Positions 1,970 to 64,000 of a DNA stretch of 64,000 nt are shown one piece after another. This DNA is from Elsinoe ampelina (lineage: Eukaryota), in contig ML992521.1 in assembly GCA_010093995.1 (NCBI GenBank), positions 1 through 64,000 on the forward strand, given 5' to 3'. Position 1 is the stretch's first letter. Every line of letters starts with the position of its first letter. The translations under genes were made by a program, and so were the position numbers. The notes under the pieces were generated by a model, which was given only the letters and a program-made list of their open reading frames with translations, did not search any database and was not told the DNA's origin.

Positions 1970-3151
1970 CTACACCTCCACCCTCCTCCTCCAATCCTCC
2001 CCAACCCGTTCAACATCCACGATCTCCACCCCCTTACCCAGCCCCACCATCTCACTCCCCTCCCACCACCCCACCCTCCGCTGCCTACCCGCGTCCTCCT
2101 CCCCTTCCGTCTCAGTATCCACCAGACCTCCCGCGCCATCATCCCCAACCACCACAATCGTCTGCCCCACCCAGCCCTTCAGCCCCTTGAGGTTCTCCCC
2201 GTCAACTCCGCTCAACGCGGGCGTGTCAGCGACGTACACCAACTGCGGCGCCAGATGGCGAAGCATATGCACGTACCCCGTCGGCGTGCTGAACGGGAGG
2301 ATACGCGTCCTGTCGCCCGTCAACGCCGCGCCCTGCGTCGCCAATGCGTCCAACAGACGGGCGCCCGCTCCAGAACCACCAGACAGGGACAAAGTGGAGT
2401 AGCTCCCTCCCAGGGCGTCACTCGTGTTGTTACCCCGAGGATCATACTCGCTCACTCCCGGCGCGTAGATCAGGACGAACAACGCCGTGGTGGCCGGATC
2501 GAAGGACGTGGGCAGATGTGAAAGGATACTAGTGTGTTCTTGCCCGATTATGCTCTCGTCTAGACCTTCTCTTGGCTCGGCGCTCACGACGATCGCGACG
2601 GTGCGTTTGGCGTTGGCGGCTTTGCCTTTGCCTTTGTCGGGCCGGGCCCGGGAGGCTTCTTCGCTCCAGCGTTCGTGGTCGGAGAAGCCGTCTTCGCGGG
2701 CGGAGCGTTGGCGGCGGACTTCGGGGCGGGTGTTGGAGGGGTTGGATGAGGCGGAAGAGAGACCGAGGGCGGCGGCGCCGGCTGCGAGGGCCCCTGTGCC
2801 TGCGGCTACGAGGCGGCCTGCGGAGTCGTAGAGGCCTGGTGAGGCGGAGCGGACGGCTGTGGTGGCGCGGTTGAGGAAGTTGTCGGATTGAGGTGCGGCA
2901 CGGGAGCCTGAGGATTGGGGAGGATAGGGCGGTGGTGCGGACGCTGCTTCGTCGGAGTCGTAGCGGTAGAGTTCCTCGTCGTCGGTGGGTGGGTATGAGG
3001 AGGAGGTGCGACGTTCTGACCAGATCCAGGCTGCTAGTCCGGCAGAGGCTAAAGTCAGAGTGAGGACAAGCGGGGCGTAGGTTGAGACGGTAGAGCGGCG
3101 CGAGGAGGGAGGGCCATATAGAGGTCGTCGGCGACGGTCGTTTCCTGACAT
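1970..3151 (-). CDS. Peroxin 22-like membrane protein (filamentous-fungal Pex22-like)
   Basis: 393-aa ORF with an N-terminal TM segment (YAPLVLTLTLASAGLAAWIWSER) and C-terminal motifs HMLRHLAPQLVYV and GWVGQTIVVVGDDG, which I recall from fungal Pex22-like proteins. Confidence 0.7.
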   Translation of the reverse strand: MSGNDRRRRPLYGPPSSRRSTVSTYAPLVLTLTLASAGLAAWIWSERRTSSSYPPTDDEELYRYDSDEAASAPPPYPPQSSGSRAAPQSDNFLNRATTAVRSASPGLYDSAGRLVAAGTGALAAGAAALGLSSASSNPSNTRPEVRRQRSAREDGFSDHERWSEEASRARPDKGKGKAANAKRTVAIVVSAEPREGLDESIIGQEHTSILSHLPTSFDPATTALFVLIYAPGVSEYDPRGNNTSDALGGSYSTLSLSGGSGAGARLLDALATQGAALTGDRTRILPFSTPTGYVHMLRHLAPQLVYVADTPALSGVDGENLKGLKGWVGQTIVVVGDDGAGGLVDTETEGEEDAGRQRRVGWWEGSEMVGLGKGVEIVDVERVGEDWRRRVEV

Positions 3152-3711
3152 GGTGATCGCTGGTGGGTGGAACCAGGTAGTTGGAATGTTTGCGCCGAGG
3201 CGCTCAAGCGTTGATTTGCTAGAAACTCATACAATAATTCGAGAAATTCATAGAATATAGCACGCACTGCAGTAGTTCACCTGGGTCGGATGCGATTGGG
3301 ACTGTGATATATCGAGTATCTCGTAGAAGTGCAGATGGCTGGGTGATATGCAGCTCCACATGCCTGGCCTCGGGCGCAACTTTTGGCGACAGACGTTGAT
3401 TCGGCAACGCTGATGCAGGAGCTTTGGCCAAGCAAAGCGGAGCCGCATCAAACGCGGTGAGGACTATTCTGCCGGCTTTGGTGTGGGAGTCAGTGATGGA
3501 GAAGGCAATGCTGCCAATCCAAGGCAAACATTGAGATGTACAAAGACACGATCAAGAGACGATGATATACTGGGCGACACGTACTTCGAATCGCACCAGA
3601 ATGATATCGATGGTCGCTCCTCCATCTTGAATCGCCAACATTCTGTCCGCAACTTTACCCCTCCGCTTGCATTGTATAGGGTAGTGCTGGGGCACTCTAC
3701 ATCAGACCGAG

Positions 3712-7793: not shown

Positions 7794-10731
7794 ATGCAAT
7801 TCAAGCCGTTCAAAAGGCCGTCGTTCCTCAGCAAGCCGCCTTCAACGACCCCGGAAGACGAGCCGGCAAGTCCTCCGGCCAAAAAGCGACGTATATCAGA
7901 TGAGAAGGAGTTTCGAAGACCAGTGAAAGAAGAAGTGCAAGCTCCGACACCTTCACAAAATGCTCCGCAATTCCGACGTCCACTTGTGGCGGTTCACAAT
8001 CCATCGCAACCGGACACTTCGCCACCCGATGCTGTTCGGGAACCCAAGAGGATGTACAGCGCTCTATGGTAGGATTTGACCTCGTCATTGTTCGTATCCT
8101 TGAGCTGATTGTTGATGCAGGCGCAAGAAGACAGCCAAAATGCACAAAACCTGGGACGGCGACGGAACCCTGACAGTGGCAGATGGGTATGCCTCACTTA
8201 AGAATGACAAGGGCAAGTATATGGGGCGAACAGCATGCAAGACACCCCTACTGCCTGGATCAGCACTTTCTATCAGCGGCATGGATGTGGAAGTGGAGGA
8301 TGTGCTCTCCGCAGACAATACACTGGACGACGATGAACCTCGAGCAGCTTCCCCACCACCTTCTTCTGCACCAAAACCTACTTTCAAAACTCGTCCGACG
8401 TTGTCAGTGCTGCCTAAGAAGCTGCCTGCGGAGTTACTGGAGAAGGCAAATCGGGCCACGCAAAAAGGAAAGCTTGAATCAAGACAAGAAGCATTCCAGA
8501 TTGCAGCTGCAAACCCACTGGTCCGCACTGGTTCCCTTCTGAATGGCAGATCATCAAGCGGAGGCTCAACAGGACCGGCAGCTAAGCATGATCCGACGGC
8601 AGAAGGAGCCTTGGTCATGAAGCGACCGAAAGTGGCGCCACCTGGCAAGACAATTGTGGATGTCGTTGTTGATCCTGCCATCTGCAAGCATCTTCGAGAG
8701 CATCAGCGATCTGGAGTCTCTTTCATGTATGAGTGTGTCATGGGTATGAGGTGCAAGGAAGGTGCTGGAGCAATCCTTGCAGATGAAATGGGTCTGGGCA
8801 AGTCTCTTCAGACGATTGCACTCCTCTGGACCTTGCTCAAGCAGAACCCCATCTACCGAGATCCTCCAATTGTGCGTAAGGCTATTGTCTTGTGCCCAGC
8901 AAGTGTGACGAAGAATTGGCGGAAAGAATTCAGGAAGTGGCTGGGTTCGGAAAGGATTGGTGTCCTCCTACTCGACGATCAGAAGAAGATCAGGAGCTTC
9001 ACTCGTGGAAAGAGCTATCAGGTACTAGTAGTTGGGTATGAGATGTTCAATCTGATTCAGAAGGATCTTCAGAAGTGTAACGAGATCGACATCATCGTTG
9101 CGGACGAGGGACACAGACTGAAGACCGCAAAGAACAAGACAACCACGGCCATCACAGAGCTGGACATCGAGAGACGTATTGTTCTGACCGGAACTTTGTT
9201 ACAGAACGACTACAGCGAGTGGTACTCCGTGGTCGACTTTGTGAATCCTGGCTTTCTCGGCAAGTACTCGTCCTTCAAGAAGAGCTACCAGAATCCTATC
9301 TTGCGGTCTCGACAGCAAGGAGCAACACTCGAGGACATCGAGAAAGGCGAAGAGGCCGACGCGGATCTGAAGCAGCAGACTGGTAGCTTCATTCTTCGCC
9401 GTACTGTGGACATCCTTGCGAAGTACCTCCCAGCAAAGACCGAGTACGTGGTAATGTGCAGACCCACCGGATTGCAGGCGAGTGTATACGAGAGCATCGT
9501 GGCCTCGGGGACTCTCACTGCCGCCATCGGTCATTCTGAGCTTAATTTGGGGCTCATCAATATCCTCAAGAAGGCATGCAACAGTCCTTCTCTGTTAGCC
9601 GCTCCTCCACAGTCAAGCAGCAAAGCAAACGTCGAAGACGAAGCAGTGAATACCTCCGTCCTCTCGGATCTCCACACCAAGTTCTCGCCAGCTACTCTCC
9701 GTGCCCCTAGCTCAGGCAAACTCCGGGTCCTCGATTCGCTTCTGCTTCACATCTCAAAGTCCACGTTGGAAAAGGTCGTCATCATGTCTAATTACACCAC
9801 AACTCTCGACGTCATCGCCCCATTCCTATCCTCGCAGTCCTACACCTTTGTGCGCCTCGACGGCTCTACCCCAACCGCAAAGCGACAAGACATGGTCGAC
9901 TCCTTCAACAACACCCCAGCAAGCCGACAATTCATCTTCCTCATGTCCACCAAAGCCGGCGGCGTCGGCCTCAACCTCATTGGCGCCTCTCGCCTCGTCC
10001 TCTTCGACGTAGACTGGAATCCGGCCCTCGACCTCCAAGCCATGGGTCGAATCTGCCGCGACGGTCAACGCAGGGCATGCTGGATCTACCGCCTCGTCAC
10101 CAAGGGCGCCATTGAAGAACGCATCTTCCAACGACAAGTCGTCAAGATGGGACTCGCGGACAGTGTAGTCGACAACCGCAAGGGCGAGAGTTCGTTCAGT
10201 CAAGACGAGCTTCGTGATCTGTTCAGGCTCGACCGGAGCGAGGGGTGCAGGACCCACGAACTTCTAGGGTGCCACTGTAACGTTGACGGGAAGACGCCGG
10301 ATTTGGTCGAGGAGGAGAGGCAGAGCACTGATAGCGAGGACGATCTGCCGTTGGAGAGGAAAGGTTTCGTCACTGCTAGTAGAGTCGATAGAGACGACCC
10401 TGATGGCAGTAGGAGTCGGGAGAGTAGTCCTGTGAAGAGAGAGAGGAGGATGAGAGGGTTGATGCTGTATGGGCATTTGGACGCGAGCAGGATGAGGGCT
10501 GAGGCTGGGGATGTGGTAGAAGCTACTGAGGGGGTTCGCGTGGTGGATCCGGACCGGGGGCAGGACAGTGAGACGGAGGGTGAGGGGATGGAGAAGGAGG
10601 ATGAGCAGGAGGAGGAAGGGAAGGGGTGGGCTATCCAGGATGGGATCTTGAGGAAGGTGATTCTCGAGAGTGAGAGCTCGGTTGATTTTGTGTTTGCTAG
10701 GACGAGTGAGAATAGTGCTGCGAAGGGGTAA
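7794..10731 (+). CDS. RDH54: SNF2-family DNA translocase Rdh54/Tid1/RAD54B; intron 8069-8120
   Basis: Spliced N-terminal WRKKTAKMHKTWDGDG motif, and helicase motifs LADEMGLGKS, DEGHRLK, RLDGST, KAGGVGLNLIGASRL and QAMGRICRDGQ. Confidence 0.9.
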
Positions 10732-11177
10732 GGGCTTTCGCTGGAGGTATATGAGGTGCGAGGTCAGCCGGGCTAGGAACACGTTGGGTGGATGGCATGT
10801 GTATCCATGTATAGACAGACCATTCTTAGATCTTGGAATCCAGTGTCGGTATGCACCACATCACGAATCCCATGGAGAAGTTGAGAAGATCCGTCCACAG
10901 CTATGCATGACGAAAGAAGCAGTATGTACAGCAAAGCAACACTTGGCCCCTCACTCGTCCCAGTCTGTCATGAAAAAAACCCCGTCATCAAGCCGTATCT
11001 GGCCTCCTGAGAAGCTGTCTCCTCACGCCATGCAACACTCCAGGAAAGTCGACCAGCGACGCCTGTCTCCGTCCTCGCCACAAAAAAAAAGTATATACAA
11101 ACGCACCACTCTCATGCTCCCTCCCATCCAGCAAGTCCCCAACTCCCCTCTCCTCGTCATCCCCCACCCAGCCTATC

Positions 11178-13547
11178 CTAAAGCTGAAACCCCGCGACCG
11201 TCGCACAGAAATTACTCCTGTTATCCGCGTCCAGCACATTCCCATTCGGCAGGGTCACCATATTGATCGCGGCCTTTGTGCTCAACGCGTACATGTACAG
11301 ATTACTATTCGTCCCCTCGATCTGCGTCATGTGCTGCTGGCAATTATTCGGGTAGACGCAATCTTGCGAGTAGTTCTCGAAGAAGCTGTACATGCCCGCG
11401 CCGTAGACGTAGACGTTGTTGGAGTTTTGGATGCGGAGGCCGAAGGATTTGACGCATTTGGCTTGGCCCGAGGGGCAGAGGGAGAAGTTGGGGTCGGACC
11501 AGGTGGCGTTGGGGGTGAAGGGGGTGGTGGCGAGGGGGTTGCCTTGGTAGTAGGGTGTTTCGGTTTGGATGAAGCCCATGAAGACGTTGGAGGCCTTTGA
11601 GATTTGGTAGTTGTACAGTGTGTTGTGTTCCGAGCTGGTGCCCCAGAACCAGGAGGGGCCGGTGGATTCGACGAGGAGGCCGCGGCCGTTGTAGATGTCG
11701 ATTTGGTTGTAGGGGCGGATGTCGAGCTCGTGGTCCGAGACCCAGAGCCAGGTGTTTTCGAGGTAGACGCCGGAGGCGGACGGGGTGACGTGGAAGAGGA
11801 GGTAGGAGCCGATGCAGGCCGAGTTGGCGCCGTGGGCGACGGTGGGGTTCTTGGTGCATTGGGTTGATTGAAGGTCGGTGCCGGCGGTACCGCCGATGCG
11901 GAAGTGGACGTCCCAGAGGCCGGAGGCGCCGGGGGTGGATTTGAGATTCCATTGCATCATAATGGCGCCAGGGGCAGGGCCTTTGGTCTCGAACATGAGG
12001 TCTTGCATCTCGACGGAGCCAGACTGGCCTGGTGTGCCGACTTGCCAGAAGGGACGTGGGTTGCGCTGATCGCCGAAGAAGGAGCCGGAAGCGAAGATGA
12101 GAGGCCAGTGCTCGCCGACGATCTTGATATTAGGTGGGACGACAATGGTGGAAGTGATGACATAAGCACCATGGTCGATGTAGAGGATCTGACCACTGGT
12201 GATGGCAGCCATGGCACGCTGGAAGGCGGCGGTGTCATCAGCAACACCATTGCCGACGGCGCCGAAGGATCGGATGGAGATGAAGTTGCCGACGGCGACG
12301 TTCTGGTACTGAGGCTTGGAGCGAGTGAAGAACTTGCCAGAAGAGTCCAAAAGCTGGGCAGACTTGGTAGGAGCAGCGTTGCCGCCTTGGATGCGGCGCC
12401 CGGAAGCTGAGTTGTAGTAGCGTCCCTGTGCCCAGGACTGAATGACACGGTTACCAGCGAGGATCTGTCCGTTGTTGGCATTGACGACAGCGTTGGGTAC
12501 ATTGGTGCTCATATCGACGTTGTCGATGACCAAGCTGCCACCCCCGTTCGGGACAGAGACAGGGTTGAGGGTAAAGGCGGTCTTGATACCGATGGGGGTG
12601 TTGCTGATCTTGGAGTCCATCATGATGACTGAACCTACGGTCTGGTTGGCGGGTCCGTTTGACATGTCAAGACCGATACCGCAGTTGTTGATGGTGACGC
12701 CAGCCATGGTCCAACCCCAGTTCCAGTTCATGAAGATGGCTGTTTGAACGTTGTTGAAGACCAAATTCCTGGTGGTGAATTGCTGGGATCCATAGAAAGC
12801 ACCATACTGGCCACCGTTGAAGGTAAGATCGGACATGAACCCGCCAGACCCGTTGTCCATGAAAATTCCAAGCTGTTTGCTACCAGAACCGGGGATCATG
12901 TTGAAGACAATGTTCTGGAGAGAGGTAGCCTGGGCAACCTGCCAGTGAATGCCGGCACCGGCTGTTTGGGGCATGGCGGTCAGGTCGATGACAAAGTTGC
13001 GAACCTGACGGAAGAAATTGTTCTGGTTAGTGAACCAGTTCACGCCATTGGCGTCGTAGGGGTCGGCATCGATGACGGCCATGCCCTGGAAACTGGCAGC
13101 AGCCTTGATTGTAGGGGGGTTGACAGCGTCTCCGATCAGCTGAGAGTAGTAGTACTGGATGATTGGCCTGCTGACAAGGTAGGTACCAGGCGGGAAGTAG
13201 ACGATGGCTGGAGTGACGGTAGTAGAGTCACATCCCTGTCCGCAACGACTCCCAGAAGAAATGGCAGCGTTGATGGCATCGGTGGAGTCTCTGGCGCCAG
13301 TAGGATCGGCGCCGAAATCGGCGACGACATTGCGATAGAGCTTGTAGCCAGAAGGAGCGTAGTTTGTGAGAGCTTGACGTTTGATGTTGGCCAGCCAGTA
13401 GCTGGAGGATTGACGTGCTACCAGGTCTGACTTCTTGACATGGACAGCAGCGTCCGGCGCGGCGTGTGCGAGAGGGGAAGCAATGACAGTAGACACCAAG
13501 AGGGAGGCGACCAGCGCAAGCAGGGATGTACCCTTGAATGCAACCAT
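11178..13547 (-). CDS. Secreted GH55 exo-beta-1,3-glucanase
   Basis: Signal peptide MVAFKGTSLLALVASLLVSTVIASP, two pectate-lyase-like beta-helix modules (YRNVVADFGA.. and FGAVGNGVADDT), and motifs NQNNFFRQVRN, GIHWQVAQATSLQN and QTETPYYQ. Confidence 0.93.
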   Translation of the reverse strand: MVAFKGTSLLALVASLLVSTVIASPLAHAAPDAAVHVKKSDLVARQSSSYWLANIKRQALTNYAPSGYKLYRNVVADFGADPTGARDSTDAINAAISSGSRCGQGCDSTTVTPAIVYFPPGTYLVSRPIIQYYYSQLIGDAVNPPTIKAAASFQGMAVIDADPYDANGVNWFTNQNNFFRQVRNFVIDLTAMPQTAGAGIHWQVAQATSLQNIVFNMIPGSGSKQLGIFMDNGSGGFMSDLTFNGGQYGAFYGSQQFTTRNLVFNNVQTAIFMNWNWGWTMAGVTINNCGIGLDMSNGPANQTVGSVIMMDSKISNTPIGIKTAFTLNPVSVPNGGGSLVIDNVDMSTNVPNAVVNANNGQILAGNRVIQSWAQGRYYNSASGRRIQGGNAAPTKSAQLLDSSGKFFTRSKPQYQNVAVGNFISIRSFGAVGNGVADDTAAFQRAMAAITSGQILYIDHGAYVITSTIVVPPNIKIVGEHWPLIFASGSFFGDQRNPRPFWQVGTPGQSGSVEMQDLMFETKGPAPGAIMMQWNLKSTPGASGLWDVHFRIGGTAGTDLQSTQCTKNPTVAHGANSACIGSYLLFHVTPSASGVYLENTWLWVSDHELDIRPYNQIDIYNGRGLLVESTGPSWFWGTSSEHNTLYNYQISKASNVFMGFIQTETPYYQGNPLATTPFTPNATWSDPNFSLCPSGQAKCVKSFGLRIQNSNNVYVYGAGMYSFFENYSQDCVYPNNCQQHMTQIEGTNSNLYMYALSTKAAINMVTLPNGNVLDADNRSNFCATVAGFQL

Positions 13548-13572
13548 GTTTCTGGTAGTGCAAGTTGCAGAG

Positions 13573-13771
13573 CTGAAGAGAGCAACGTCAGTGGATGCGA
13601 ACAGAAAGAGTGTGAGTTGCTGCGAATGAATGTAAAAGGTCGAAAACGAATGATTGTTAAGGAGCGACAATTGAATGAGTGACTGAAGCAGAGGGGGTAC
13701 ACGAGGTTGGGAGGAATGCGAAGGGGGTAGGACAGGATTTGTACGATGGTTGGAGGAGGTGGACCACTCAC
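13573..13771 (-). other. Probable 5'-UTR intron of the GH55 gene
   Basis: Minus-strand GTGAGT donor at 13771, CTGAC branch plus polypyrimidine tract and CAG ending at 13573, about 25 nt before the ATG. TATAAA lies at 13900-13905 on the minus strand. Confidence 0.55.
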
Positions 13772-15955
13772 GCTGAATGTCTGGTTGCTGTCGTGGCAAG
13801 GTGTGGTATCAGTCGGGCCAGATGCGCAGGGAATGCGTTTCAGATGCTCGTGGAGCTGCAGCTGATGGTATGCAGTATTGGTCGGCGACCATTGCGGCCT
13901 TTATACAAGCGAGACATTCATTATACCCCTCACCTCTTCTCCCACCCCATCTCACCGTCTGTACCTCTACGCTCGGTCATCAAGCCATACCAACATCGCG
14001 TAGATGACCTTGTGATCAATCCGCGGACAGCTCATGGTGAAGCCATTTTGGCAAACGCAGACTACGATGGCAAAAGCTTGTGACGTGGTAGTTGCGCCGC
14101 GCTAGATGATGAGACGGCGTATTCGCAAGCGCATGACGGGAGGAACAGCTCCATACTAAGGAAGCCCGTCCCTTGACAGAATTGATCATTTTCTTCCAAT
14201 GTTACGTGAAGAAGCGTGATGCCGCGTGAAAGGTTGGAAAATGCAGTGCTAGGAGATGCGGGACGCGCTGTGATTGGTCGATGACGAATCGACGTTTGGC
14301 GGCTAGTCCTTCCACCGGCAAAGGCAAGATGGTCAAGGGGACGGGCAATGAAACACTTTTTCCCTGAATGTGCTCAGATGTCTGTTTCTACTGGCCAGTA
14401 CTGTCATTTCGCATCACCCACACCACCCTCACGGGCCTTGACTTGGTCACCCATGCACAGAACAGCTGCCGCAGTCTCCGCAGACTCCGAGCACTTGGGG
14501 ACCCAGCACGAACACGATCGACGAAGCTAGCAAGGCGATCCAGACAAATCCCCCACTCTTCCGCCGGCGCGCCCTTTGCTCGCCCACTTTTCCATCGCAA
14601 TAATCCATGGAAGTGTTCCTGACTATCAAATTGGCCCCTTCTACCAGATTCTTGTCGCTGACGACTCCCGCCCAGTCAGGAGGAGCCTGCCAGAGGTAAG
14701 ATGCGCGTCCAAGGGGCTCTTCACAAGCTGCGGCTCGCGACTGTTTCGAACGCGACCAGAAAAGATCACTGCAGATCCCTTCTGCTGCTCCAGTGGACAT
14801 CGCCATGTGCCCCGGTCAGGCGGCGACCTCTACTCCAGACTCCAGACTACCACCAGTCACTCCGTCATTAGGACCTGACACTGGCATATGCTCGCTAATG
14901 CAGGTTCACAAACCTTGACCACCTCAAGAATCTCTTGGCCTCAGGCTTTTTGGACAAAATGGTGCGGGGTTTGAGGGTCACGCTGCAAGCGATCCTTCTA
15001 GCGCTTCTAGAAGGACACCAGTCTCTGCTTGGCCCTATACTAGTCGCCTCCTCAAATTTCCTACAGCTTCACTTGCTCCAACATAGCGCTAGAATTTCGG
15101 TCGACTACTTTTGCACCATCACGCGACCACTGCCACCATGTAACCTTGCCCGCAGCCAGCACAATTTCCTACCAGCCGTCCACTCGATTTTTGCCACTAA
15201 GCGAGTCTGACCGCTTCATTGACAATCGACATGACAGCCACCTCGATCATCGCTTCCTTGCCCTTTCTCTTGGATCCTCTAGTGCATTCAGTATCTGGTA
15301 TTCAATCTATCACTCTTCATGGTGGCTTGCTCAAACCATGCACCGAAGTCTTCCAGAAGCTCGCTAGAAGGATTGCACGGCGCTAGAAAAGCTTGCGAAG
15401 CACCACCCTCCACCCACATCAGCCCTAGAAACGCCAGCTTCGCGAGACTATCATCTCCACGATCGCTTGGTAGTATAAGATCGGTCGGGAAACGGCTCAT
15501 AGGCCAAGCCGGTGATGCAACTTGCAAGGACCGTGCTGACGGCGTTATCAGTCTTCACCTTTCGACACGGACCTCATGCTGCAAAGAGAGTCCCCAATGG
15601 ACTCAGCTGGGGATGCATACTGGGGTGCATGACCGCTCCCACATCCCACGGCTCCCCCAGACTTCTCCAGACGCCTCGTGTGAGAAAATGTACGTCGTCC
15701 ATAAGTGTACTATTGGAGGGCTCGAGGTCATTGGTAAGCGGGTCGTGATTGAGAAGACACTTGATTTCATGCTGGGTATTATCGACCGTTACCGTAGCTA
15801 CTGCTTGCTATCCATGCTGCATGTTTCTGTTCCGTAACGCCTTGCTATTGTTAACATTCCTTTCTTCCCTTTAGCAATCTCATGACCAAGACCTCTTGGT
15901 CTGCGCGTCCCAATAGCCAAAGCGCTCGAATTCCTCATGTATCCCCTCAGCCACC

Positions 15956-17737
15956 TCAGGACCCGACAACAGGCACCTTCGACCCCTCCAACACCTCACT
16001 CGTCAGCCTCTGCAACATGGCCAAGTCGACCCCCTTGCCTTCCCTACTGAACCCCATCTCGTCCATCACACCCTTTGTCACCCACCCAAGCTTCGCGAGC
16101 CACTGGAACACCCACTCAGGCTTCTTACGCCTCATGAATGGCAAGTGGATGATGAGACTCTTGACTGGCCTTCTCGGTCCAAGCTCTGTGTCTGGTGCAA
16201 TCTCGACGCCAGCAGGAGGATCACGCGGCACCTCCCTATCCAGCAGGTGAAGTATAGTCTTCATCAAAGCGGTACCGACGCCTTTCTTGGTGTGATGAGG
16301 TGAGACATAGACTTCGACTTCGCAGGTATAGCGGTACATGCCGCGTGGGTCGTTGTAGTCATCCGCGTAGACCATGCCGACGACGGTTGAGGTGCGGGCT
16401 CGGACAGCGACTAGGAATGGAAAAGAGGCATCTTGAATGGTATGCAGACGGCGTGTCATGGAGGAAATGCTCGTTGGACCGGCGTCAGGGACGCAGACGC
16501 TGTTGAGGACGTGATGATTGTAGATAGAGGTGAGTTGTCCAATGTCCTGGTCAGTCGCGGGACGGATGACAATGTCGATGGGGGGCTTGGTGGAGACCCA
16601 CGGCTCGGGTGTAGCATTCGCCGGTGCAAGTCTTGTTGATGACGTTTCCAAGGTGTCTGGATGCGGCTTGACTGATAGAGGTGGTGAAGGAGGTGCCGCT
16701 CCAGGCTTCATCTGTCCTGTGATGGGCAGTGAAGGGAAATCTGCCTCCCAAGTGGTCGTATTCTGTGCAGGGTTGAAAGTAGGCTCTTCTTGCGGCTTCT
16801 TGTCCCAGGAGAGGCCCGGACGATGACGCTCCTCACGTGCATTGTCCCGACACTGATTGCGTCCCTGCTTGCGCTTGCCTTTGTATTTCTTACTGGCGAG
16901 GTACCTTTTCGCATGAGATTCGGAGCCATGGTCGTTCTCACGTGCGTCTTTTTCAGAAAGAGTCTCGCTATTGGGGTCGATCCGAAGCTTGAGGTTGTCA
17001 CATTCGTCGACGACTGCTGGCATGTAATAAGCACCGGGCGAACAGTAGTAGCGCCAAAACGGTTGCCTCGTTCCGAGAGCGAGAGTGTGGTCGTCTTCAG
17101 TCGCATCTGGTGGCGCAGTGCGGAAGTACTCCCAGAATGAATCAGCGTTCAAGTTGTTCTCGACAGACTCGGGTTTCCAGTATCTTGGAGCAATGTCGCC
17201 CATCATCATGATCTCGGCATTGCCTGTCTTCGTACGTGATGTGCTTTTGCCATTGATAGTGCTCGAGGTGGTGAAGACGGCAAGTATCTCTTTCCCCTTC
17301 ATTGCGAAGCCGTGCTCGAGGGGCATTGGATACAGCTCATCTTTGAGAGCCTCGATGCATCCCTTGTTCCAGGTATGGATGTATGCCTCGGAGATATCAT
17401 AGGAGCGACGACCTTCCCAGTCGACTGGTGCTGGAGCCCAATTTCCATTCCAGTCCACCAAGCCATCACAGCCCTCCGGAACATTGACAGGTGCCCATGC
17501 TGGCCCTTCCCACTTGTGGCTGTTTGCTTCCATGTTCCAGGCAGAATCCCATTCATTAGTGGGTTGTGGAGGCATCGCTGGTTTTTGCTCTACAGGGTGG
17601 CGACGGTTGTTGTAGAAGTTGTTGTTGCGATTGTTCTGAGGATGACGGATTGGATTAGGAGATTGACGTCGTGCAGCTGGCCGAGGTCTCAGTCCTCGAG
17701 GCGCATTGACAGCACGGGACCATTGTTGATTCTGCAT
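15956..17737 (-). CDS. GNAT-family acetyltransferase with long low-complexity N-terminus
   Basis: C-terminal GNAT domain (IRPATDQDIGQLTSIYNHHV, FPFLVAV, EVYVSPHHTKKGVGTALM) resembling the Pat/YncA type. The first ATG is at 17737. Confidence 0.8.
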   Translation of the reverse strand: MQNQQWSRAVNAPRGLRPRPAARRQSPNPIRHPQNNRNNNFYNNRRHPVEQKPAMPPQPTNEWDSAWNMEANSHKWEGPAWAPVNVPEGCDGLVDWNGNWAPAPVDWEGRRSYDISEAYIHTWNKGCIEALKDELYPMPLEHGFAMKGKEILAVFTTSSTINGKSTSRTKTGNAEIMMMGDIAPRYWKPESVENNLNADSFWEYFRTAPPDATEDDHTLALGTRQPFWRYYCSPGAYYMPAVVDECDNLKLRIDPNSETLSEKDARENDHGSESHAKRYLASKKYKGKRKQGRNQCRDNAREERHRPGLSWDKKPQEEPTFNPAQNTTTWEADFPSLPITGQMKPGAAPPSPPLSVKPHPDTLETSSTRLAPANATPEPWVSTKPPIDIVIRPATDQDIGQLTSIYNHHVLNSVCVPDAGPTSISSMTRRLHTIQDASFPFLVAVRARTSTVVGMVYADDYNDPRGMYRYTCEVEVYVSPHHTKKGVGTALMKTILHLLDREVPRDPPAGVEIAPDTELGPRRPVKSLIIHLPFMRRKKPEWVFQWLAKLGWVTKGVMDEMGFSREGKGVDLAMLQRLTSEVLEGSKVPVVGS

Positions 17738-34980: not shown

Positions 34981-35050
34981 ACCACCCTCCCTCCCGTCCG
35001 AAACAAAGACGCGCAACCACCCTCCCTCCCGTCCGAAACAAAGACGCGCA
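34981..35050. repeat. Perfect 35-bp tandem duplication
   Basis: ACCACCCTCCCTCCCGTCCGAAACAAAGACGCGCA occurs twice, at 34981-35015 and 35016-35050. Confidence 0.95.
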
Positions 35051-45542: not shown

Positions 45543-45731
45543 GGCATTGCAAAGAAAGTGTGGGATAGACTAATTCTGCCGTGTACAATATCCTACATGT
45601 GGTATGGCTACTTCTCCACAACCGAGCAATCTGCTTCCCGTCCTCCCCTGCCCCTGTCCACAATATCATCCCATATTCCATGTCCTACATCCCATTCTTC
45701 TTCTCCTTCTCTTACCCCCCCTGTCCCTCCC

Positions 45732-46786
45732 TTACGACCCCGCCTTCCCCTCGTCAACAAACGGCACCTTCATCCCCTCCGCCTCCCTCTCCACCTCCCT
45801 CCTCCCCCTCCACGGCACCCCAAAGCTCCACTTGCCCGCCACAAACTCCTCATCCCCCATGTCCCCCAACGCCTTCGCCCCCCTCCTCATCCACCCCACG
45901 ATCTCCGCCAACGCCACCGCATCCACCCCCTCCTTTCCCCCAAACACATTCCTCCACACCGCCGCGCCCAACACCGCGTCCCCCTTGATCACCCCCTCGT
46001 CGTAACTCATCACGTTCCCGCGGTACGTATCGTACATATCCTTCAAATACCGACTCCTGATCCCGCGCGAGGTGATGTTGTGCATACCATCCATCTTCTC
46101 CTCCGCGGCGTAGAAAAAGTGATCCAGCAGTTGCTGGGACCATTTCCGTTCGTGCTCCGCGGGGAACATGCGCAGGCGGAGCTGGAGGAGATACAAGTGG
46201 AGGATCGTCAATTGGGACCACGTGCTGAAGGTGGGCGGGAGGGAGTAGGCGTAGTGCCATGTTTGCTTGCTCAAAGGGAAGAAGATGTCTTCGCCGGCGC
46301 TGGTTTTGAGGGGTTCGGGGGGCGCGGATTTGTTGTAGGGAGAGCGGGAGGGGACGGGGCCGCCGGGGGAGGTGGTGGTGGAGGGTGGGGTCGTGGAGGG
46401 GGCCGTGCCGCTGTAGTCGCCGGCTGAGGAGCAGGATTTGAAGAGCGATTCGGTGGTGCCGTAGGCGGCGTAGGGGGCGGTTGCGGAGCCGATGGAGCCT
46501 TGTTTGCGCAGGGTGGAGGCGAGTTTTTGGATCGAAGGGGCGTCGGGCGGTGGGACGGGAGAGGGAGCTGGGTCGGAGGGAGGGGAGGAGGGTGTGCTGG
46601 CTAGGGAGCGGGAGGGGGATTGGAAGGCGCGGTGGGAGGAGCGGAGTGCTTCGTTGCGTGTCGCGAGCTGGTAGCGAAGGGCCTGTGGATGGTCAGTGAC
46701 GGTCATTGTGGTTGTCCGGTGTGCAATACCTGTGATCGCGTCCTCGCTCCTTGCGCTATCGCAGAGTAACACTGCCTGCCGGACAT
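45732..46786 (-). CDS. CBP3: Ubiquinol-cytochrome c reductase assembly chaperone Cbp3; intron 46683-46729
   Basis: PTFSTWSQLTILHLYLLQLRLR, YDEGVIKGDAVLGAAVWRNVF, and an Arg/Ser-rich presequence-like spliced N-terminus (MSGRQCYSAIAQGARTRSQALRY). Confidence 0.9.
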
Positions 46787-54988: not shown

Positions 54989-56782
54989 ATGTCCGACGAT
55001 GACAGCAGCGATGCTAGCTCATCGCCGCCACCAGAAACACTCATTGCTGGACGCGCGCGACGAACGACTGCCGGCAATCGCTTGTCACACCTCCTGCAAC
55101 ACCTGGATGATGAGGACGTGAAAGCAGATCTTTTGGCCGACGAGCAAGATGACCAGAACGACTACTCTGCATCAGAGGATGGCGACGCTGATGTTGCATT
55201 CGACTCTAGTGATGACTCCGACGACGAGGCTAAAGAAGGAGGAGACGATGAGCTGGCCGGCGAGAAGGAATTACAGAAGCAAGAACGAGTCGAGTCAAAG
55301 CGGAAGCGCAAAGCGCGAGAGCTCGTTCGCGTACAGCCTCTCAAGAAGAAGGTCAAGATCGTAGAAGAGCCAGTGGTCAGCGAAGACAATCCACCACCAG
55401 CGCCTTCGAAGAAGCTGGAACGATTGAGCTCTTCGCATCTTGGTCCTGTTCGGCAGTCTTCTCGGTCCCAAACGATTGCCAGCGCCAAGGTCACTGAGGC
55501 GAGAGTCAAGGAGAACAAGAAGCGGGCCATCAGAACGCAGGAGATCATGCGTATAGCGGCAGAGAAGAAGGCAGCAGAAGCCGGACCAGAGCTCACGCAG
55601 GAAGATCGAATGGCGCGAGCACTGCAAATCGAAAAGGTCAACAACAAGAGCTTGAACAGATGGGAAAAATCTGAACAAGAACGCCTTCGACTGCAGAGGG
55701 AGAAGCTGGAAGCTATGCGGAACAGGAAACTTGACGGACCACTCATACGCTATTGGAGCGGACCTGTTCAATGGACATGGCGAGAAGGGCCAGATGGACC
55801 GGTCTACGCTCGTTTCAAGTATCTCAGGGAGCCGAGTCAGAAGAACAAAAAGTCCGACAAGCACGAACTTGAGGACGGGAAACAATCTCGACGGCAATCT
55901 CTTGCAAAGGTCCAAGTCATTGAGGAGACAAATGCACCTGACGGCGGCGACGCAGCAGTAGAGGCATCGACTACGAAGGACGAAGAAATGACAGACGCAC
56001 CTCCTGCGCCGGCCGAAGCACCACGCTCAGCAGATGGGAAGACTGCCCCTGCCAAGTATCCGTCTTCCACCACTCCAGCGATCTCACACAAAGACGCCGA
56101 ATCCTCCTTCCTGGACGGCATCCAACTCTACGCCACAGACACCCCTTCACGACCAGGCCCCGAAGCCTCCCGACCCTCCATCCTCATCTCGTCCGCAGAC
56201 GCCCCCACGCTCATGGCACCCTACACCTCACCTCCCCTAGGCTACCACCCCTCCATGCCACCCTACGTCCCCATTCCCTCCCTCCCCGGCACCCACGGCT
56301 CCCACCTCCCCCTCCACACCTCAATCGCCACCCGTGTCCTCCTCACCCTCTCACAATTCCCCAACCTCCCCTCCTCCCCGCCTCCCACCCGCAAAGCCCC
56401 CACCACCGACCCCCTCCTCACCACGCACCTCCTCCCGGACTCCCACCCCCCTCTCTCAGCCGAAGAAAAACGCTACCTCACCACCCGCGCCCGCTCCTCG
56501 AAGAACAACCTTGATGTCCTCCCTGCTCCGCCCGCGCGTCCCACGTGCGCCATCACCGGCCGTGTGGCGCGGTTCCGGGACCCGAAGACGAGGTTGCCCT
56601 ACGCGGATATGCCGGCGCACAAGGCGATTCAGAGGGTGTTGGCGAACGGGTGTGCGTGGAGTCCGTTGCTGGGGGCGTGGGCGGGGATTGTAGGGGAGGG
56701 GACGTTGGGGAGGACGGCGAGGGGGGTGCCGGCGGGGTGGTGGAAGGGGGAGGTGGGCGAGAGGGAGGTCATTGAGTTGTAG
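54989..56782 (+). CDS. VPS72: SWR1 complex subunit Vps72/Swc2 (YL1 family)
   Basis: LIAGRARRTTAGNRL, an acidic region, LTQEDRMARALQIEKVNNKSL, and the YL1-C motif CAITGRVARFRDPKTRLPYAD. Confidence 0.9.
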   Translation: MSDDDSSDASSSPPPETLIAGRARRTTAGNRLSHLLQHLDDEDVKADLLADEQDDQNDYSASEDGDADVAFDSSDDSDDEAKEGGDDELAGEKELQKQERVESKRKRKARELVRVQPLKKKVKIVEEPVVSEDNPPPAPSKKLERLSSSHLGPVRQSSRSQTIASAKVTEARVKENKKRAIRTQEIMRIAAEKKAAEAGPELTQEDRMARALQIEKVNNKSLNRWEKSEQERLRLQREKLEAMRNRKLDGPLIRYWSGPVQWTWREGPDGPVYARFKYLREPSQKNKKSDKHELEDGKQSRRQSLAKVQVIEETNAPDGGDAAVEASTTKDEEMTDAPPAPAEAPRSADGKTAPAKYPSSTTPAISHKDAESSFLDGIQLYATDTPSRPGPEASRPSILISSADAPTLMAPYTSPPLGYHPSMPPYVPIPSLPGTHGSHLPLHTSIATRVLLTLSQFPNLPSSPPPTRKAPTTDPLLTTHLLPDSHPPLSAEEKRYLTTRARSSKNNLDVLPAPPARPTCAITGRVARFRDPKTRLPYADMPAHKAIQRVLANGCAWSPLLGAWAGIVGEGTLGRTARGVPAGWWKGEVGEREVIEL

Positions 56783-57218
56783 AGTGGTTTGAGAGCGGAA
56801 GTCTTGGGGTTGTGAAGGGAGGGTTTATGGTAGTGGTTGTTAGTGATTGGGTTCATGTGATTATGGAAACGGAAAGCAGGGAGCGGTAGATACCCCGAGC
56901 ATTCGAAAATGTTTCGTCATGCATGTCATGCAGTGTTTCGGTGTTGGTTGTCTGATCAAGCACAGTGTGAACGATAACGTGCTCCGCCATAGACATACTG
57001 GGCACATCACCGTGCAGATTTACTGTTCAGAAGATTTCGATTCGAATGCACTCTACCCCTCAATGAATCATCAACGCCTGTCCGCTACCGTGTCCCATGA
57101 TCTTCGAGACAGACAGTGACGCGGAAGTGCATGCGTATGTTTTTCCCTGGCCGCCGGCCGCCTATGCACCACGACCAGCAGAGCCACTCCATCACTACCC
57201 CAACCATCATCGAGTCGT

Positions 57219-57916
57219 CTATTTGTCCTTCTTGTTCTTCTTGGCACCCTTGGTCTTTGCTGTGCCGCGGAACTCCTTGGATCGGTTCTTCCTTTGCTTG
57301 CCTGTTGGTGCGTCAGTGACTGGTTTCGTCCTTCGTGTCTGCCCTGTTTCGTATTCCATCCATCCAATGTTTGCCCATCGATCTTTTCCTTGTCCATGAC
57401 GTCCTTCTCTTCCCGAAACAATGACAATAAACATGATAGACGTACGTTGCTGCCTAGAAGCCTTCTCGATCTTGGTGGCGAGGCCGTATCTGATGAGCCT
57501 GTATCGGGGCTCGAACTTCTTCATCGACTCGGTGCTCTCGTAGACGAGCGCGAAACCAGTCGTCTTGCCGCCACCGTACTGTGTCCTGAGACCGAAGACC
57601 GAGACTGCATCCTTGGGGGCCTTGTAAAGCTCTGCAAGCTTGTCGCGGAGGTCGTCCTTGGAGACATTGGCGCGGTTGGGGTGGAGAACGTCACTGCGCG
57701 AGAGGGTTAGTGGATGGTTCCTAGAGATGTCGTGTGTATTCGTCTGTATTGCGAAGGGGGCTCCAGTGTCCTCTCGACAGTCGTGGTCGTCTTTCGTGGT
57801 CGAGAGAAATCTGTGCGGTTGTGGATGGGGCAAACTCACACGACCATCTGCTTGCGTCCGAGCAGTGGGTTGCGAATGAACTTGCGCGTTCGGAGAGTAA
57901 CCTGGCCTTCCGACAT
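57219..57916 (-). CDS. RPS24: 40S ribosomal protein S24 (eS24); introns 57694-57839 and 57302-57445
   Basis: The spliced product reads [62 protein letters not shown]. Confidence 0.97.
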
Positions 57917-59347: not shown

Positions 59348-59350
59348 ATG

Positions 59351-62390: not shown

Positions 62391-63686
62391 ATGAGCGGCC
62401 TCCTCCAGCTCTCCGACGTGGGCAAACTCGCGCCGAACGATGACACCCTTCAGATCTTCAGAGACAAGCTCACAGATGCTGTGGGCAGTAACAAAAGGGG
62501 CTTTCCAGGCGCACAACCGGTGTCCTTCGCACGAAGACACCTACAAGAATTGAAGGATGCAGAGTCAGTTTCACCGCCTGCTCCACGCTCTCAGAAATTC
62601 GTAGGGCATACTGACAAGTTGCAACCTAGCTATTTCGTCTGTGAGAAGACTGATGGCATCCGATGTCTCCTCTTTCTATCCTTCCATGTCACGGCCGATG
62701 GCAACACCGAGATGGCCTTTCTGGTAGACCGAAAAAACGACTTCTACTTCATCGATAACCCATCCTTCCACTTCCCCTTGCCAAACCAAGCTCCTGACAC
62801 ATTCCATACCGACACGGTCATAGATGGCGAGCTAGTACTTGATACATACCCCGACGGCCGGACCGTTCGACGATATCTAGTTTTTGACTGCCTTGCACTC
62901 GACGGCAAGCCCATCACCAACCGAACACTGGACAAGCGTCTGGGTATCTTTGATGCGAACGTCTTCAAGCCCCAACAAGCACTACTGAACAAATACCCTG
63001 AAGAGAAAGAGCAGCAACCCTTTGAAGTCCGCATGAAGAAGCTCGACCGAGCCTACGGCGTGGAGGGCATCTTCAAAGAAATGCCACTCCTCACCCACGG
63101 CAACGACGGTATAGTCTTCACCTGCCGCACCACCCCCTACAAAAGCGGCACCGACGAAAACATTCTTAAATGGAAACCGCCCCACGAAAACACCATCGAC
63201 TTCAAGCTGCAAATCGGCGCCTTCCCCCGCCTCGGCGGCGACACAAACGGCCACACCTTCACCAACGGCACCCCCACCGCCGACGACTTCGACTACGACG
63301 CCTGCCCATCCTTCAACCTCCTCGTCGGCGAAGGCCGCGGCCGCCACTCCGTCTTCGGCACCCTCTTCGTGTCCGACGACGAATGGACCAGCATGAAAAG
63401 CCTGAACCAAATGCTCGACGCGCGCATCATCGAATGCTACAAAGACAGCCAGGGGAGGTGGCGATTCAAGCGCGAAAAAGACGGCACACCGCGATTTCGC
63501 GACGATAAAGACGATGCGAACCACGTTAGTACGGTCCATAGTGTCTTGGAGAGTATCGAGGATGCGGTGTCCGAGCAGGATCTCATTGCGCATGCCGCGG
63601 AGATAAGGGCGAGGTGGAAGCAGAGGGAGGCTGAGGCGGCAAGGCAGGCGAGGGAGCAGCAGCAGCAGCAACAGCGCCCGGCTTAG
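62391..63686 (+). CDS. CEG1: mRNA capping enzyme guanylyltransferase; intron 62564-62629
   Basis: FPGAQPVSF, motif I VCEKTDG, IDGELV, YLVFD, HGNDGIVF, LKWKP and RFRDDKDDANH. Confidence 0.95.
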   Translation: MSGLLQLSDVGKLAPNDDTLQIFRDKLTDAVGSNKRGFPGAQPVSFARRHLQELKDAESVSPPAPRSQKFVGHTDKLQPSYFVCEKTDGIRCLLFLSFHVTADGNTEMAFLVDRKNDFYFIDNPSFHFPLPNQAPDTFHTDTVIDGELVLDTYPDGRTVRRYLVFDCLALDGKPITNRTLDKRLGIFDANVFKPQQALLNKYPEEKEQQPFEVRMKKLDRAYGVEGIFKEMPLLTHGNDGIVFTCRTTPYKSGTDENILKWKPPHENTIDFKLQIGAFPRLGGDTNGHTFTNGTPTADDFDYDACPSFNLLVGEGRGRHSVFGTLFVSDDEWTSMKSLNQMLDARIIECYKDSQGRWRFKREKDGTPRFRDDKDDANHVSTVHSVLESIEDAVSEQDLIAHAAEIRARWKQREAEAARQAREQQQQQQRPA

Positions 63687-64000
63687 AAGGGGAGGTGGGA
63701 TTCTGGTGCTGGTGCGGTGGCGGCGGGGTGGGCGAGGCAGGGGGATGATAAGAAGTGATGCTTTGAGCGAGACCGGTCGCATGGAGTCACAAGGAAGGCA
63801 TGGTTGGACGACTTTTGATACCCTAAGCGTGGCGTTGGGTTTGCCTGGCATCAGGCACAGGAATGGGATTTGACTTCAATCGCTCATGTGTAGCCAGAAC
63901 AACACTTACGATGCTCACACTCCTGCCAGTGCCAGTGCCAGTGCTCGTGACCATGATAATCATACCACCTAATCCCCACAAAGGGTATCTACTTTTCTGT

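Follow-up and report, generated by a model that had tools for sequence, protein, structure and literature searches.

Sharp C-rich to G-rich switches near gene 3' ends in Elsinoe ampelina: a strong local example of the fungal gene-end GC skew

The window analysed here, the first 64,000 nt of Elsinoe ampelina contig ML992521.1 (assembly GCA_010093995.1, forward strand), carries among others RDH54-like, GH55-like, aquaglyceroporin, glycerol kinase, TTI1, CBP3, VPS72 and CEG1 genes, and towards the 3' ends of these genes the strand composition changes abruptly. A sequence-only reading had marked ten points by eye at which the forward strand passes from C-rich to G-rich, and all ten were recovered as minima of the cumulative (G-C) walk (2459, 10132, 11318, 26077, 34253, 35566, 44976, 46104, 56557 and 63450) with offsets of 0–72 bp; an eleventh, absent from that list, was identified at 16241, and nine opposite switches (G to C) were counted in the window. 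A three-state HMM delimited 23 skewed segments of 53–592 nt with skews of +/-0.43–0.83, amounting to 6808 of the 64,000 nt (10.6%). An absolute skew above 0.5 was observed in 59 of about 1274 intervals of 300 nt, as compared with at most 1 when 30-nt blocks were shuffled and at most 12 when 100-nt blocks were, each 200 times. The sharp switches are thus confirmed as real. Alignment of 140-nt stretches from the 11 switch points showed no common motif on inspection by eye, and no Rfam family reached its gathering score anywhere in the window.

The segments described below are HMM calls, and C-rich and G-rich refer to the sense strand of the gene concerned. The putative PEX22-like ORF 1973-3226 (- strand), for which no Pfam match was obtained, has a G-rich arm at its 3' end (1963–2213; + strand C 0.55, G 0.08), also evident in the stop-anchored profile, and a C-rich arm at 2698–3113 (+ strand G 0.49), the switch minimum being 2459. 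The RDH54-like (SNF2) gene (+ strand) shows a G-rich arm from its 3' end into the 3' UTR (10402–10795; switch 10132), ahead of which lies a milder C-trough at about 9600–10050. In the GH55-like gene (- strand, stop about 11181) the 3' UTR is G-rich at 11104–11178, a C-rich arm spans 11470–11880 (switch 11318), and the 5' end carries a C-rich block at 13554–13762 which makes up the 5' half of the published fungal pattern considered below. The eleventh switch belongs to a GNAT-domain gene (- strand) with a G-rich 3' end at 15933–16087. Further along, the Mcp5-PH gene (+ strand, stop 25283) has a G-rich 3' UTR at 25349–25515, and the aquaglyceroporin (- strand, last exon 25846-26229) is G-rich over its 3' end and UTR (25807–25933; switch 26077) and C-rich in its 5' part (27107–27287).

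The glycerol kinase (+ strand, stop 34460) has its C-rich arm within the FGGY_C domain (33948–34172) and a G-rich arm that includes the start of the 3' UTR (34296–34513; switch 34253). At and past the stop of the Far1-like gene (- strand, 35332) the sequence is G-rich over 34721–35443 in two HMM segments, with an A-rich island of 53 nt (35124-35176) within it; this region represents an extended 3' UTR or else an additional exon, and the C-rich arm of the same gene covers 35609–36025 (switch 35566). TTI1 and CBP3 stand end to end. The C-rich arm of TTI1 (+ strand, 44601–44977; C 0.56, G 0.07) runs from the last intron, whose bounds 44596-44688 are predicted from sequence, into the TPR_TTI1_C domain, and the G-rich arm (44978–45569; G3 0.58) ends 30 nt past the stop (45542). 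The G-rich arm of CBP3 (- strand, 45570–46019; G3 0.78) covers its 3' UTR and last 95 codons, the C-rich arm spans 46161–46648 (C3 0.71), and the switch at 46104 falls inside the Ubiq_cyt_C_chap domain. VPS72 (YL1 family, + strand, stop 56779) is C-rich at 56046–56557 and G-rich at 56632–56889, including 3' UTR sequence, and the capping enzyme gene CEG1 (+ strand, stop 63683) is G-rich over its 3' end and UTR at 63599–63760 (switch 63450).

The switches had been read as lying some 200–600 bp ahead of stop codons, and all 11 do lie 137–596 nt from the downstream stop in the sense direction. Since the zone qualifying under the test with 22 stop codons takes up only 17.2% of the window, the chance of 11 out of 11 is P ~4e-9, and among 100000 random sets of 11 points the best attained nine stop-anchored matches. 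Averaged over 24 ORF ends, the sense skew was -0.21 at -600, +0.30 at -150 to 0 and +0.21 over the 150 nt that follow the stop. A C-to-G switch was called at 11 of the 22 gene ends, and at least seven ends are without any. The genes earlier named as lacking the pattern do lack it, the third-position skew of their last 100 codons being close to zero (GCD1 -0.09, CWC24 0.09, kinase -0.03, JSN1 -0.04, MFS 0.06, putative EFM3 -0.06, STE14 -0.08).

Systematic comparison of site classes places the bias at the level of DNA. At 4-fold sites, where the skew is strongest (a single base reaching 0.67-0.73), the C-rich arms have C 0.73 and G 0.08 and the G-rich arms G 0.67 and C 0.10, the baseline values being C 0.33 and G 0.20. 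Third codon positions flip across the switch as had been proposed, from C 0.71-0.75 to G 0.58-0.78, and the effect decreases from third to first to second codon positions, so that non-degenerate positions are affected too. At 2-fold sites of the G-rich arms only 34% of Y-ending codons end in C (baseline 64%) and 89% of R-ending codons in G, while in the C-rich arms 22% of R-ending codons end in G (baseline 62%) and 88% of Y-ending codons in C; the bias is hence directional and not a plain GC enrichment. The G-rich strand has gained G and lost C at every site class, and the C that remains has no dinucleotide context bias, so no known deaminase signature fits. GC3 is higher in the arms (rho 0.57, p=0.006), and in most units the cumulative walk falls and climbs by similar amounts (for example 199/225, 197/197 and 196/203).

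The earlier statement that introns and UTRs follow the skew holds for the last intron of TTI1, which lies inside the arm (C 0.46, G 0.06), and for eight of nine 3' UTR pieces (sense G 0.32-0.44 versus C 0.05-0.19), and fails for the remaining piece, the first 58 nt past the TTI1 stop (G 0.24, C 0.17). No skew in the arm's direction is present in the CBP3 intron (sense C 0.36, G 0.17), which the called arm does not include. The peptides encoded are rich in P, S, T and L in the C-rich arms and in G, V, R, E, M and W in the G-rich arms, which is to say that the skew pulls amino-acid composition along with it. Arms cover conserved and variable protein segments alike, and faster protein evolution was not seen in them (identity of TTI1 to E. 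fawcettii 0.48-0.72 in arm windows versus 0.29-0.86 elsewhere). Taken together, the 4-fold sites, one intron and most UTRs corroborate the notion of a non-coding layer over the coding sequence that protein selection alone does not explain.

The 66 environmental fungal loci assembled for CBP3 display the same pattern in the same place, in some cases as strongly as Elsinoe ampelina, which accords with the expectation that orthologues have switch positions in common. Median third-position skews across 63 of these loci are -0.21 and +0.48, compared with -0.72 and +0.74 in the window, and the sense skew of the last 300 nt is +0.40 over the 66 loci. The directional signature at 2-fold sites recurs by sign in 55 and 60 of the 66. 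An amino-acid index compared among orthologues ranges from -0.35 to -0.43 (C-arm) and from +0.46 to +0.68 (G-arm) within the Elsinoe clade, and from -0.23 to +0.10 and +0.11 to +0.40, respectively, in outgroups.

A pattern of this kind, held by the sequence-only reading to have no described counterpart in filamentous fungi, is in fact on record. According to the available part of McLean and Tirosh 2011 (BMC Genomics 12:638, PMC3315797), most of the fungi analysed have a coding strand with a C bias upstream and a G bias at the 3' end; the species list includes Aspergillus, Neurospora, Fusarium and the dothideomycetes Pyrenophora and Stagonospora. In the same portions of that paper the skew reaches into UTRs and affects 4-fold sites, non-degenerate sites and amino-acid usage with little change in A/T, its link with expression is very weak (R ~0.07-0.1), that of S. 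cerevisiae is weak, and the authors favour mutational pressure. Each of these traits that could be placed beside ours agrees: the C-upstream, G-3' polarity (24 ORF ends and eight long genes), the 3' UTR continuation (eight of nine pieces), the skew of both 4-fold and non-degenerate positions, and the shift of amino-acid usage along with codon skew. The Elsinoe switches are therefore a strong local example of the known fungus-wide gene-end GC skew.

What differs, as far as the accessible text of PMC3315797 goes, is the form. McLean and Tirosh give modest genome averages over length-normalised genes in a species set to which Elsinoe does not belong, whereas here single genes bear sharp blocks with skews of 0.6-0.8; and in six of eight long genes (5'-to-3' profiles) the deepest C-trough lies directly ahead of the G-peak, unlike their C bias at the 5' end. 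The 3' placement of this trough is possibly a new detail, and neighbouring ORFs of at least 300 aa in the CBP3 loci (n=9 only) show a gradient with no clear trough. No relevant paper on GC skew in Elsinoe was found, and no mechanism study of opposite GC skews was found among the literature carrying the McLean-Tirosh title phrase; subscription journals and supplements may hold more.

C-rich coding-strand skew at transcription start sites has been reported for plants and fungi (Fujimori et al. 2005, PMC555766) and for Leptosphaeria maculans (Bourras et al. 2012, PMC3411245). As presented in the available portions of these papers it resembles the 5' C-rich blocks at 13554-13762 and 27107-27287, unlike the switch blocks, whose anchor is the stop codon. 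In humans, genes with terminal GC skew lie close to one another in gene-dense regions and carry R-loops at their 3' ends (Ginno et al. 2013, PMC3787257, in its available part); they share with the Elsinoe genes a positive skew of the non-template strand at the 3' end, but their skewed blocks lie downstream of the coding sequence in CpG-island-like DNA, whereas the Elsinoe skew crosses the coding sequence after a mirror C block. As to the close arrangement of those genes, the strongest units of our window do lie where two genes converge across a gap of 195-870 bp. Nonetheless, median sk3 was 0.26 for convergent (n=11) versus 0.01 for tandem genes (n=6) in the window (p=0.12), and 0.41 (n=13) versus 0.35 (n=10) in the CBP3 loci (p=0.56), the latter under a crude classification by longest downstream ORF that left 15 of 38 loci unclassified. 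These figures, a trend at most in the window, do not support the idea that a convergent neighbour is required.

Spliced RNA-like contigs from four sequencing runs are identical to the window except for one T>C at 56335, and carry neither strand nor transcript ends. The last-exon contig of RPS24, the convergent neighbour of VPS72, reaches 56766, overlapping the VPS72 contig and lying antisense to the VPS72 G-rich arm. It is far deeper than those of its neighbours, depth being a poor measure of expression, and the skew still follows VPS72.

Strand asymmetry in vertebrate mitochondrial DNA and in mammalian transcribed regions arises by deamination of the exposed strand. The asymmetry in Elsinoe is similar in that one strand is up in G, and slightly in T, and down in C and A at synonymous sites (G-rich strand, 4-fold sites: G ~0.70, T 0.14, C 0.09, A 0.075). 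It is dissimilar in that its sign flips within a gene and purines make up as much as 0.73 of 4-fold sites, which implies that transversions toward G are also needed.

The data show a substitution bias at the DNA level, and not a protein, hairpin or G4 signal. As to its cause, we incline, by a little over an even chance, to strand-asymmetric damage and repair coupled to transcription. In each affected transcription unit the coding strand is C-rich upstream, and its final 150-600 bp of coding sequence, together with the start of the 3' UTR, are G-rich. Because the C|G junction is identical on both strands, genes of either orientation give the same picture on the + strand, and where convergent genes are tightly packed the blocks alternate as C/G/C/G. 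At the gene 3' end the sense strand would be exposed, either as the non-template strand or as one displaced by an R-loop, while 300-500 bp ahead of it the antisense strand would be exposed, conceivably through antisense transcription starting at the 3' end, a step we purely infer. The exposed strand would drift to G by A>G and C>T transitions together with N>G changes, such as arise from insertion of C across from abasic sites. The pattern would accordingly be a footprint of mutation and not an element with a function.

Certain observations were counted on the opposite side. The spread of third-position skew among genes at freely variable sites (-0.32 to +0.75) was counted against uniform mutational pressure; the G-rich arm of VPS72, whose skew follows VPS72 despite the antisense RPS24 contig, against a transcription-coupled explanation; the very weak expression link given in the available part of PMC3315797 against the proposed explanation as a whole; and the depletion of C without dinucleotide context against damage of the deaminase type.

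The alternative with the most substance, albeit an unlikely one, is that the blocks are selected R-loop or pause terminators: G-rich nascent RNA would form R-loops that aid RNA polymerase II termination in a compact genome, and the C-rich block, whose pyrimidine-rich RNA disfavours hybrids, would confine them. R-loop proneness of the G-rich sense strand is possible, and the G-rich arms, 39-55% G over 160-590 nt, lie on the non-template strand exactly at the ends of coding sequences and in 3' UTRs. The convergent placement of the strongest units, the overlapping RPS24 and VPS72 contigs and the closely spaced human genes with 3' R-loops in the available text of PMC3787257 point the same way. Yet the convergent-tandem contrast is not significant in the window and absent in the CBP3 loci, many genes are entirely without skew, and rewriting amino acids in conserved domains over hundreds of bp would be a heavy cost. 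Moreover, against 300 within-arm shuffles of 20 arms, runs of at least three G or C, the G-runs being R-loop initiators, numbered 368 versus 397+/-11 expected and runs of at least four 163 versus 197+/-10 (z -2.6 and -3.5), and G4 motif starts were at expectation (88 versus 96+/-19), so the earlier suggestion of G4 selection does not stand.

A still more doubtful possibility is that the couplets of C-trough and G-peak, each about 1 kb long, are paired, self-reinforcing R-loop zones, with sense RNA over the G-rich arm and an antisense transcript from the 3' nucleosome-free region over the C-rich arm. The displaced strand would mutate toward G and away from C and render the next R-loop likelier, and such a runaway would account for edges being sharp, synonymous sites near-saturated and differences among genes all-or-none.

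Improbable, too, is a footprint of recombination, in which meiotic breaks at nucleosome-free gene ends, followed by damage or biased mismatch repair on 3' single-stranded tails extending a few hundred nt to either side, would leave a mirror skew around each intergenic region or each C|G switch. Meiotic resection tracts are of the same order as the 150-600 bp arms, and the matched drop and rise of the cumulative walk and the raised GC3 would suit such a process. Against the recombination account, the skew of S. cerevisiae is weak in the available part of PMC3315797, and the C-troughs of long genes have no G-rich partner upstream (skew -0.06 left of 44599 and +0.08 left of 56045). S. cerevisiae has strong promoter hotspots, and C. 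albicans has no known meiosis, which also count against it. In the dothideomycete Zymoseptoria intragenic hotspots are described, which is in favour, and GC-biased gene conversion is extremely weak or absent, which is not (PMC5844332, available portions). The hotspot proposal of the earlier reading, taken as plain GC-biased conversion, is contradicted by the preference for T over C in the G-rich arms and for A over G in the C-rich arms; as a candidate it was rejected because the AT-to-GC gain is not general across synonymous classes, with the same direction in the 66 CBP3 loci.

A negative-to-positive skew is the polarity of bacterial origins, and fixed replication origins had been suggested on that ground, but they are hardly credible here, where 64 kb hold 11 switches, the arms measure 150-600 bp, an opposite switch follows each within ~1 kb, all the switches are intragenic and tied to stops, and the same CBP3 position is skewed in 66 unrelated fungal loci whose neighbouring genes differ. 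The suggested long fold-backs of C-rich on G-rich RNA at mRNA 3' ends, or a derivation of the arms from an inverted repeat, can be dismissed with similar firmness. The arms could pair by composition, but the MFE of five units is not below that of within-arm shuffles (z 0.57, -0.22, 0.15, 0.76 and 0.75), inverted matches are only 16-36 nt long, 70-89% complementary, out of register and of low complexity, and one arm contains an intron.

Overall, the discovery is modest, since a pattern of this type had been published before, and its consequences are practical as well as evolutionary. The skew biases codon-usage and phylogenetic models, and it leaves the opposite strand free of stops over long stretches, giving false ORFs by which gene callers can be misled. 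It drives the amino-acid composition of C-terminal protein regions, and conserved domains in TTI1, CBP3 and the glycerol kinase are among those affected. With its sharp blocks and several sequenced species, Elsinoe would be a good system in which to pursue the cause of gene-end skew, and if the self-reinforcing R-loop reading were true, many fungi would have the C-terminal parts of their proteins steadily rewritten by a mutational process.

Across its 64,000 nt the window has a G+C content of 54% and no overall skew, and it is punctuated by sharply bounded blocks in which C makes up about 50% and G about 10% of one strand, or vice versa. With a three-state HMM, 23 skewed segments of 53-592 nt each were delimited (6808 of 64000 nt in total), with a skew, (G-C)/(G+C), of +/-0.43-0.83. 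The absolute skew exceeded 0.5 in 59 of about 1274 300-nt windows, against maxima of 1 and 12 in 200 shuffles each of 30-nt and 100-nt blocks, respectively. Points at which a strand turns from C-rich to G-rich were located as minima of the cumulative G-C walk, by which all ten switches named in the sequence-only reading were recovered with an offset of 0-72 bp, together with an eleventh at 16241. Nine switches run the other way, from G to C: six fall in the narrow gaps that separate convergent genes, one is located at the 5' end of CBP3, and two are intragenic, where a C block has its outer edge. The C-to-G switches were accurately described, and they depart strongly from chance.

Twenty-two genes were assigned strands and ends from Pfam scans that covered 29 long and 119 additional ORFs, and the introns of CBP3, JSN1, the MFS gene and RPS24 were confirmed by spliced RNA-like contigs; those from X7 and X8, sequencing runs labelled with a second organism, are identical to the window. 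In the sense direction, a stop codon lies 137-596 nt downstream of all 11 switches, and since the qualifying share of the window is 17.2%, the chance of this is about 4e-9, which bears out the claim that the switches lie near gene 3' ends. Averaged over 24 ORF ends, sense skew was -0.21 at -600, +0.30 in the last 150 nt and +0.21 in the first 150 nt past the stop. Since C|G reads identically after reverse complementation, the + strand looks alike whichever strand encodes the gene, and convergent neighbours produce a C/G/C/G alternation, as in TTI1/CBP3, GUT1/Far1-like, RDH54/GH55 and VPS72/RPS24.

The strongest units of the window are at convergent pairs, and the median third-position skew (codon position 3) of the last 100 codons was 0.26 at convergent (n=11) and 0.01 at tandem 3' ends (n=6), a non-significant difference (p=0.12). 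Nor was an effect of neighbour orientation, classed by the longest downstream ORF, present across metagenome contigs with fungal CBP3 orthologues (0.41, n=13, vs 0.35, n=10; p=0.56; 15 of 38 loci unclassified), so the gene end itself seems to be what carries the 3' G-richness. Genes differ widely in this measure (-0.32 to +0.75), and seven of those that had been named as flat, JSN1, MFS, kinase, STE14, EFM, GCD1 and CWC24, indeed have a third-position skew near zero. The RPS24 last-exon contig is antisense over the VPS72 G arm with a depth far above that of its neighbours, albeit contig depth is a poor measure of expression, and the RPS24 polarity is not imposed there. The spliced RPS24 contig (56766-57445; intron 57301-57444) reaches 56766, beyond the VPS72 stop at 56779, and the contigs of these convergent genes therefore overlap. 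Elsewhere, a single 6148-nt RNA-like contig at 47006-53319 spans two genes of the - strand, JSN1 and the MFS gene, with introns removed, and may represent overlapping or read-through tandem transcripts or an assembly join. Past the position taken as the Far1-like stop (35332), sense G-rich sequence continues for about 600 nt within 34721-35443 and includes an A-rich island (35124-35176). The stretch is a 3' UTR of unusual length or else a last exon that has been missed, for which ORF 34936-35328(-) would be the candidate, with no Pfam match.

The proposal of a non-coding layer superimposed on coding sequence holds. In TTI1 and CBP3 the skew reaches every codon position, most of all position 3, where C is 0.71-0.75 in C arms and G 0.58-0.78 in G arms; in the TTI1 exon upstream these values are 0.31 and 0.22. 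At 4-fold sites, pooled from 24 ORF segments, sense-C arms have C 0.73 with G 0.08 and sense-G arms G 0.67 with C 0.10, the values outside the arms being C 0.33 and G 0.20. Most of the non-coding sequence in the arms follows: the last TTI1 intron, which falls inside a C arm, is C 0.46 with G 0.06, and eight of nine 3' UTR pieces have sense G of 0.32-0.44 vs C of 0.05-0.19, the exception being the first 58 nt past the TTI1 stop (G 0.24, C 0.17). The CBP3 intron lies just beyond the called arm and leans toward C in sense (0.36, with G 0.17). Encoded peptides track the skew, being rich in P/S/T/L in C arms and in G/V/R/E/M/W in G arms, and the arms cross the conserved domains TPR_TTI1_C, Ubiq_cyt_C_chap and FGGY_C; those of TTI1 are no less conserved than the remaining protein. 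The sense C-rich arm of CBP3 (46161-46648) encodes a P/S/T-rich insertion of about 15-25 residues in Elsinoe and Sphaceloma that outgroups do not have. The arms are also poor in stop codons in several frames, giving ORFs of 240-300 aa in the wrong strand or frame, namely 44867-45592(-), 45543-46424(+), 33885-34631(-) and 62985-63875(-), which could mislead gene callers; the two scanned, 33885-34631(-) and 62985-63875(-), have no Pfam match.

The bias is directional and not a simple GC enrichment. At 2-fold codons in G arms, R-ending codons are 89% G and Y-ending ones just 34% C (baseline 64%), while in C arms Y-ending codons are 88% C and R-ending ones just 22% G (baseline 62%); G is thus gained on one strand and C lost from it, even in competition with T and A. 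Purines make up 0.73 of 4-fold sites on the G-rich strand, so transversions toward G are involved besides A>G and C>T transitions. The C remaining on that strand has no dinucleotide context (rho AC 0.93, CC 1.11, GC 1.00, TC 1.01, CG 1.01, CA 0.94). The sole difference across the four runs that gave RNA-like contigs is a T>C in run X4 at 56335, in the VPS72 C arm, which is toward C (n=1).

Comparison with other fungi was made through TTI1, whose C-terminal 283 residues (44691-45539) are 100% identical to an Elsinoe ampelina protein, and CBP3 (45735-46679), 92% identical to that of E. batatas; the window belongs to E. ampelina, the fungus of grapevine anthracnose. An amino-acid index, the G-C content forced by amino acids in each arm of the CBP3 alignment, gave for five Elsinoe/Sphaceloma proteins -0.35 to -0.43 over the C-arm and +0.46 to +0.68 over the G-arm columns, and for 13 outgroups -0.23 to +0.10 and +0.11 to +0.40. 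A metagenome-contig scan gave 80 fungal CBP3 loci of 35-52% identity. The position of the arms is common to these orthologues: where 40 or more codons could be aligned in each arm (63 loci), third-position skew had medians of -0.21 in C-arm and +0.48 in G-arm columns, the signs found in the window; about ten loci approach the window's -0.72 / +0.74 and two duplicate loci slightly exceed it. Over 66 non-duplicate loci, sense skew was -0.25 to -0.30 near the 5' end, +0.40 in the last 300 nt and +0.1 just past the stop, and the 2-fold-site signature was found again in 55 and 60 of the 66. The same HMM placed 13.5% of these loci in skewed states and at least one block in 49 of 66, figures for loci picked around a patterned gene and not a genome average. 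In most of 12 non-Elsinoe TTI1 orthologues from other classes, an amino-acid-level trough lies 200-250 residues from the C-terminus (median index -0.39), and terminal G-bias is much weaker than in Elsinoe. Since this stretch is well conserved, the trough there may in part reflect the protein.

Six of eight long genes (RDH54, GH55, GNAT, Far1-like, TTI1 and VPS72; not Mcp5-PH and JSN1) reach their deepest C-trough immediately ahead of the G-peak at the gene end, some 250-1000 nt before the stop, with skew returning toward zero farther upstream. A feature that keeps a fixed distance from the 3' end, on its upstream side, would have to be positioned from that end, which may implicate antisense transcription or a chromatin phasing that starts at the 3' nucleosome-free region.

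With modest confidence, a substitution bias that is strand-asymmetric and linked to the transcription unit is put forward as the most likely cause, a selected R-loop terminator and a break-repair footprint being its main rivals; four functions proposed in the sequence-only reading are rejected or disfavoured. That gene 3' ends carry a selected R-loop terminator is doubtful; the G arms have a composition that would favour R-loops, and their nearest functional analogue is the human terminal GC skew with R-loops (as described in PMC3787257). On the G4 side, dominant-base runs of >=3 and >=4 are fewer than in within-arm shuffles (z -2.6, -3.5) and G4-type motifs are as expected (z -0.4). The boldest reading, in which R-loop zones in sense and antisense, anchored at the 3' ends of genes, form a pair that reinforces itself, is unlikely. 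A break-centred footprint, with damage on single-stranded tails, seems quite improbable; the C block of long genes has no G-rich partner upstream. In its form as plain GC-biased conversion it is contradicted by the 2-fold sites of both the window and the CBP3 loci, and such conversion is described as extremely weak or absent in Zymoseptoria (PMC5844332). Folding energies of RNA from five units are no lower than those of separately shuffled arms (z 0.57, -0.22, 0.15, 0.76, 0.75), and just short, out-of-register, low-complexity inverted matches were found, against mRNA fold-backs. A skew of the replication-origin type is excluded by 11 units in 64 kb with arms of 150-600 bp, every unit at a stop, and by recurrence of the CBP3 pattern in dozens of fungi with different neighbours.

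Sense C-skew at fungal start sites is described in PMC555766 and PMC3411245, and McLean and Tirosh (2011, PMC3315797) reported that fungal coding strands favour C at the 5' ends of genes and G at the 3' ends, in a species list that, despite the title, includes filamentous fungi and two dothideomycetes. As that paper presents it, the skew extends into UTRs, is similar in size at 4-fold and non-degenerate sites, alters amino-acid usage, involves little A/T effect and has a very weak link to expression; position-dependent mutational pressure and an adaptive CTP-shortage idea are both left standing there as causes. The pattern it describes is a ramp, whereas six of the eight long genes of the window have a trough. 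Among the accessible papers in which its title phrase occurs, no mechanistic follow-up of that paper was found, nor was anything relevant on Elsinoe GC skew found among accessible papers. Judged from the CBP3 orthologues, the pattern is evidently not special to the E. ampelina genome, and the window is a strong new instance of a described fungal pattern, not a new phenomenon.
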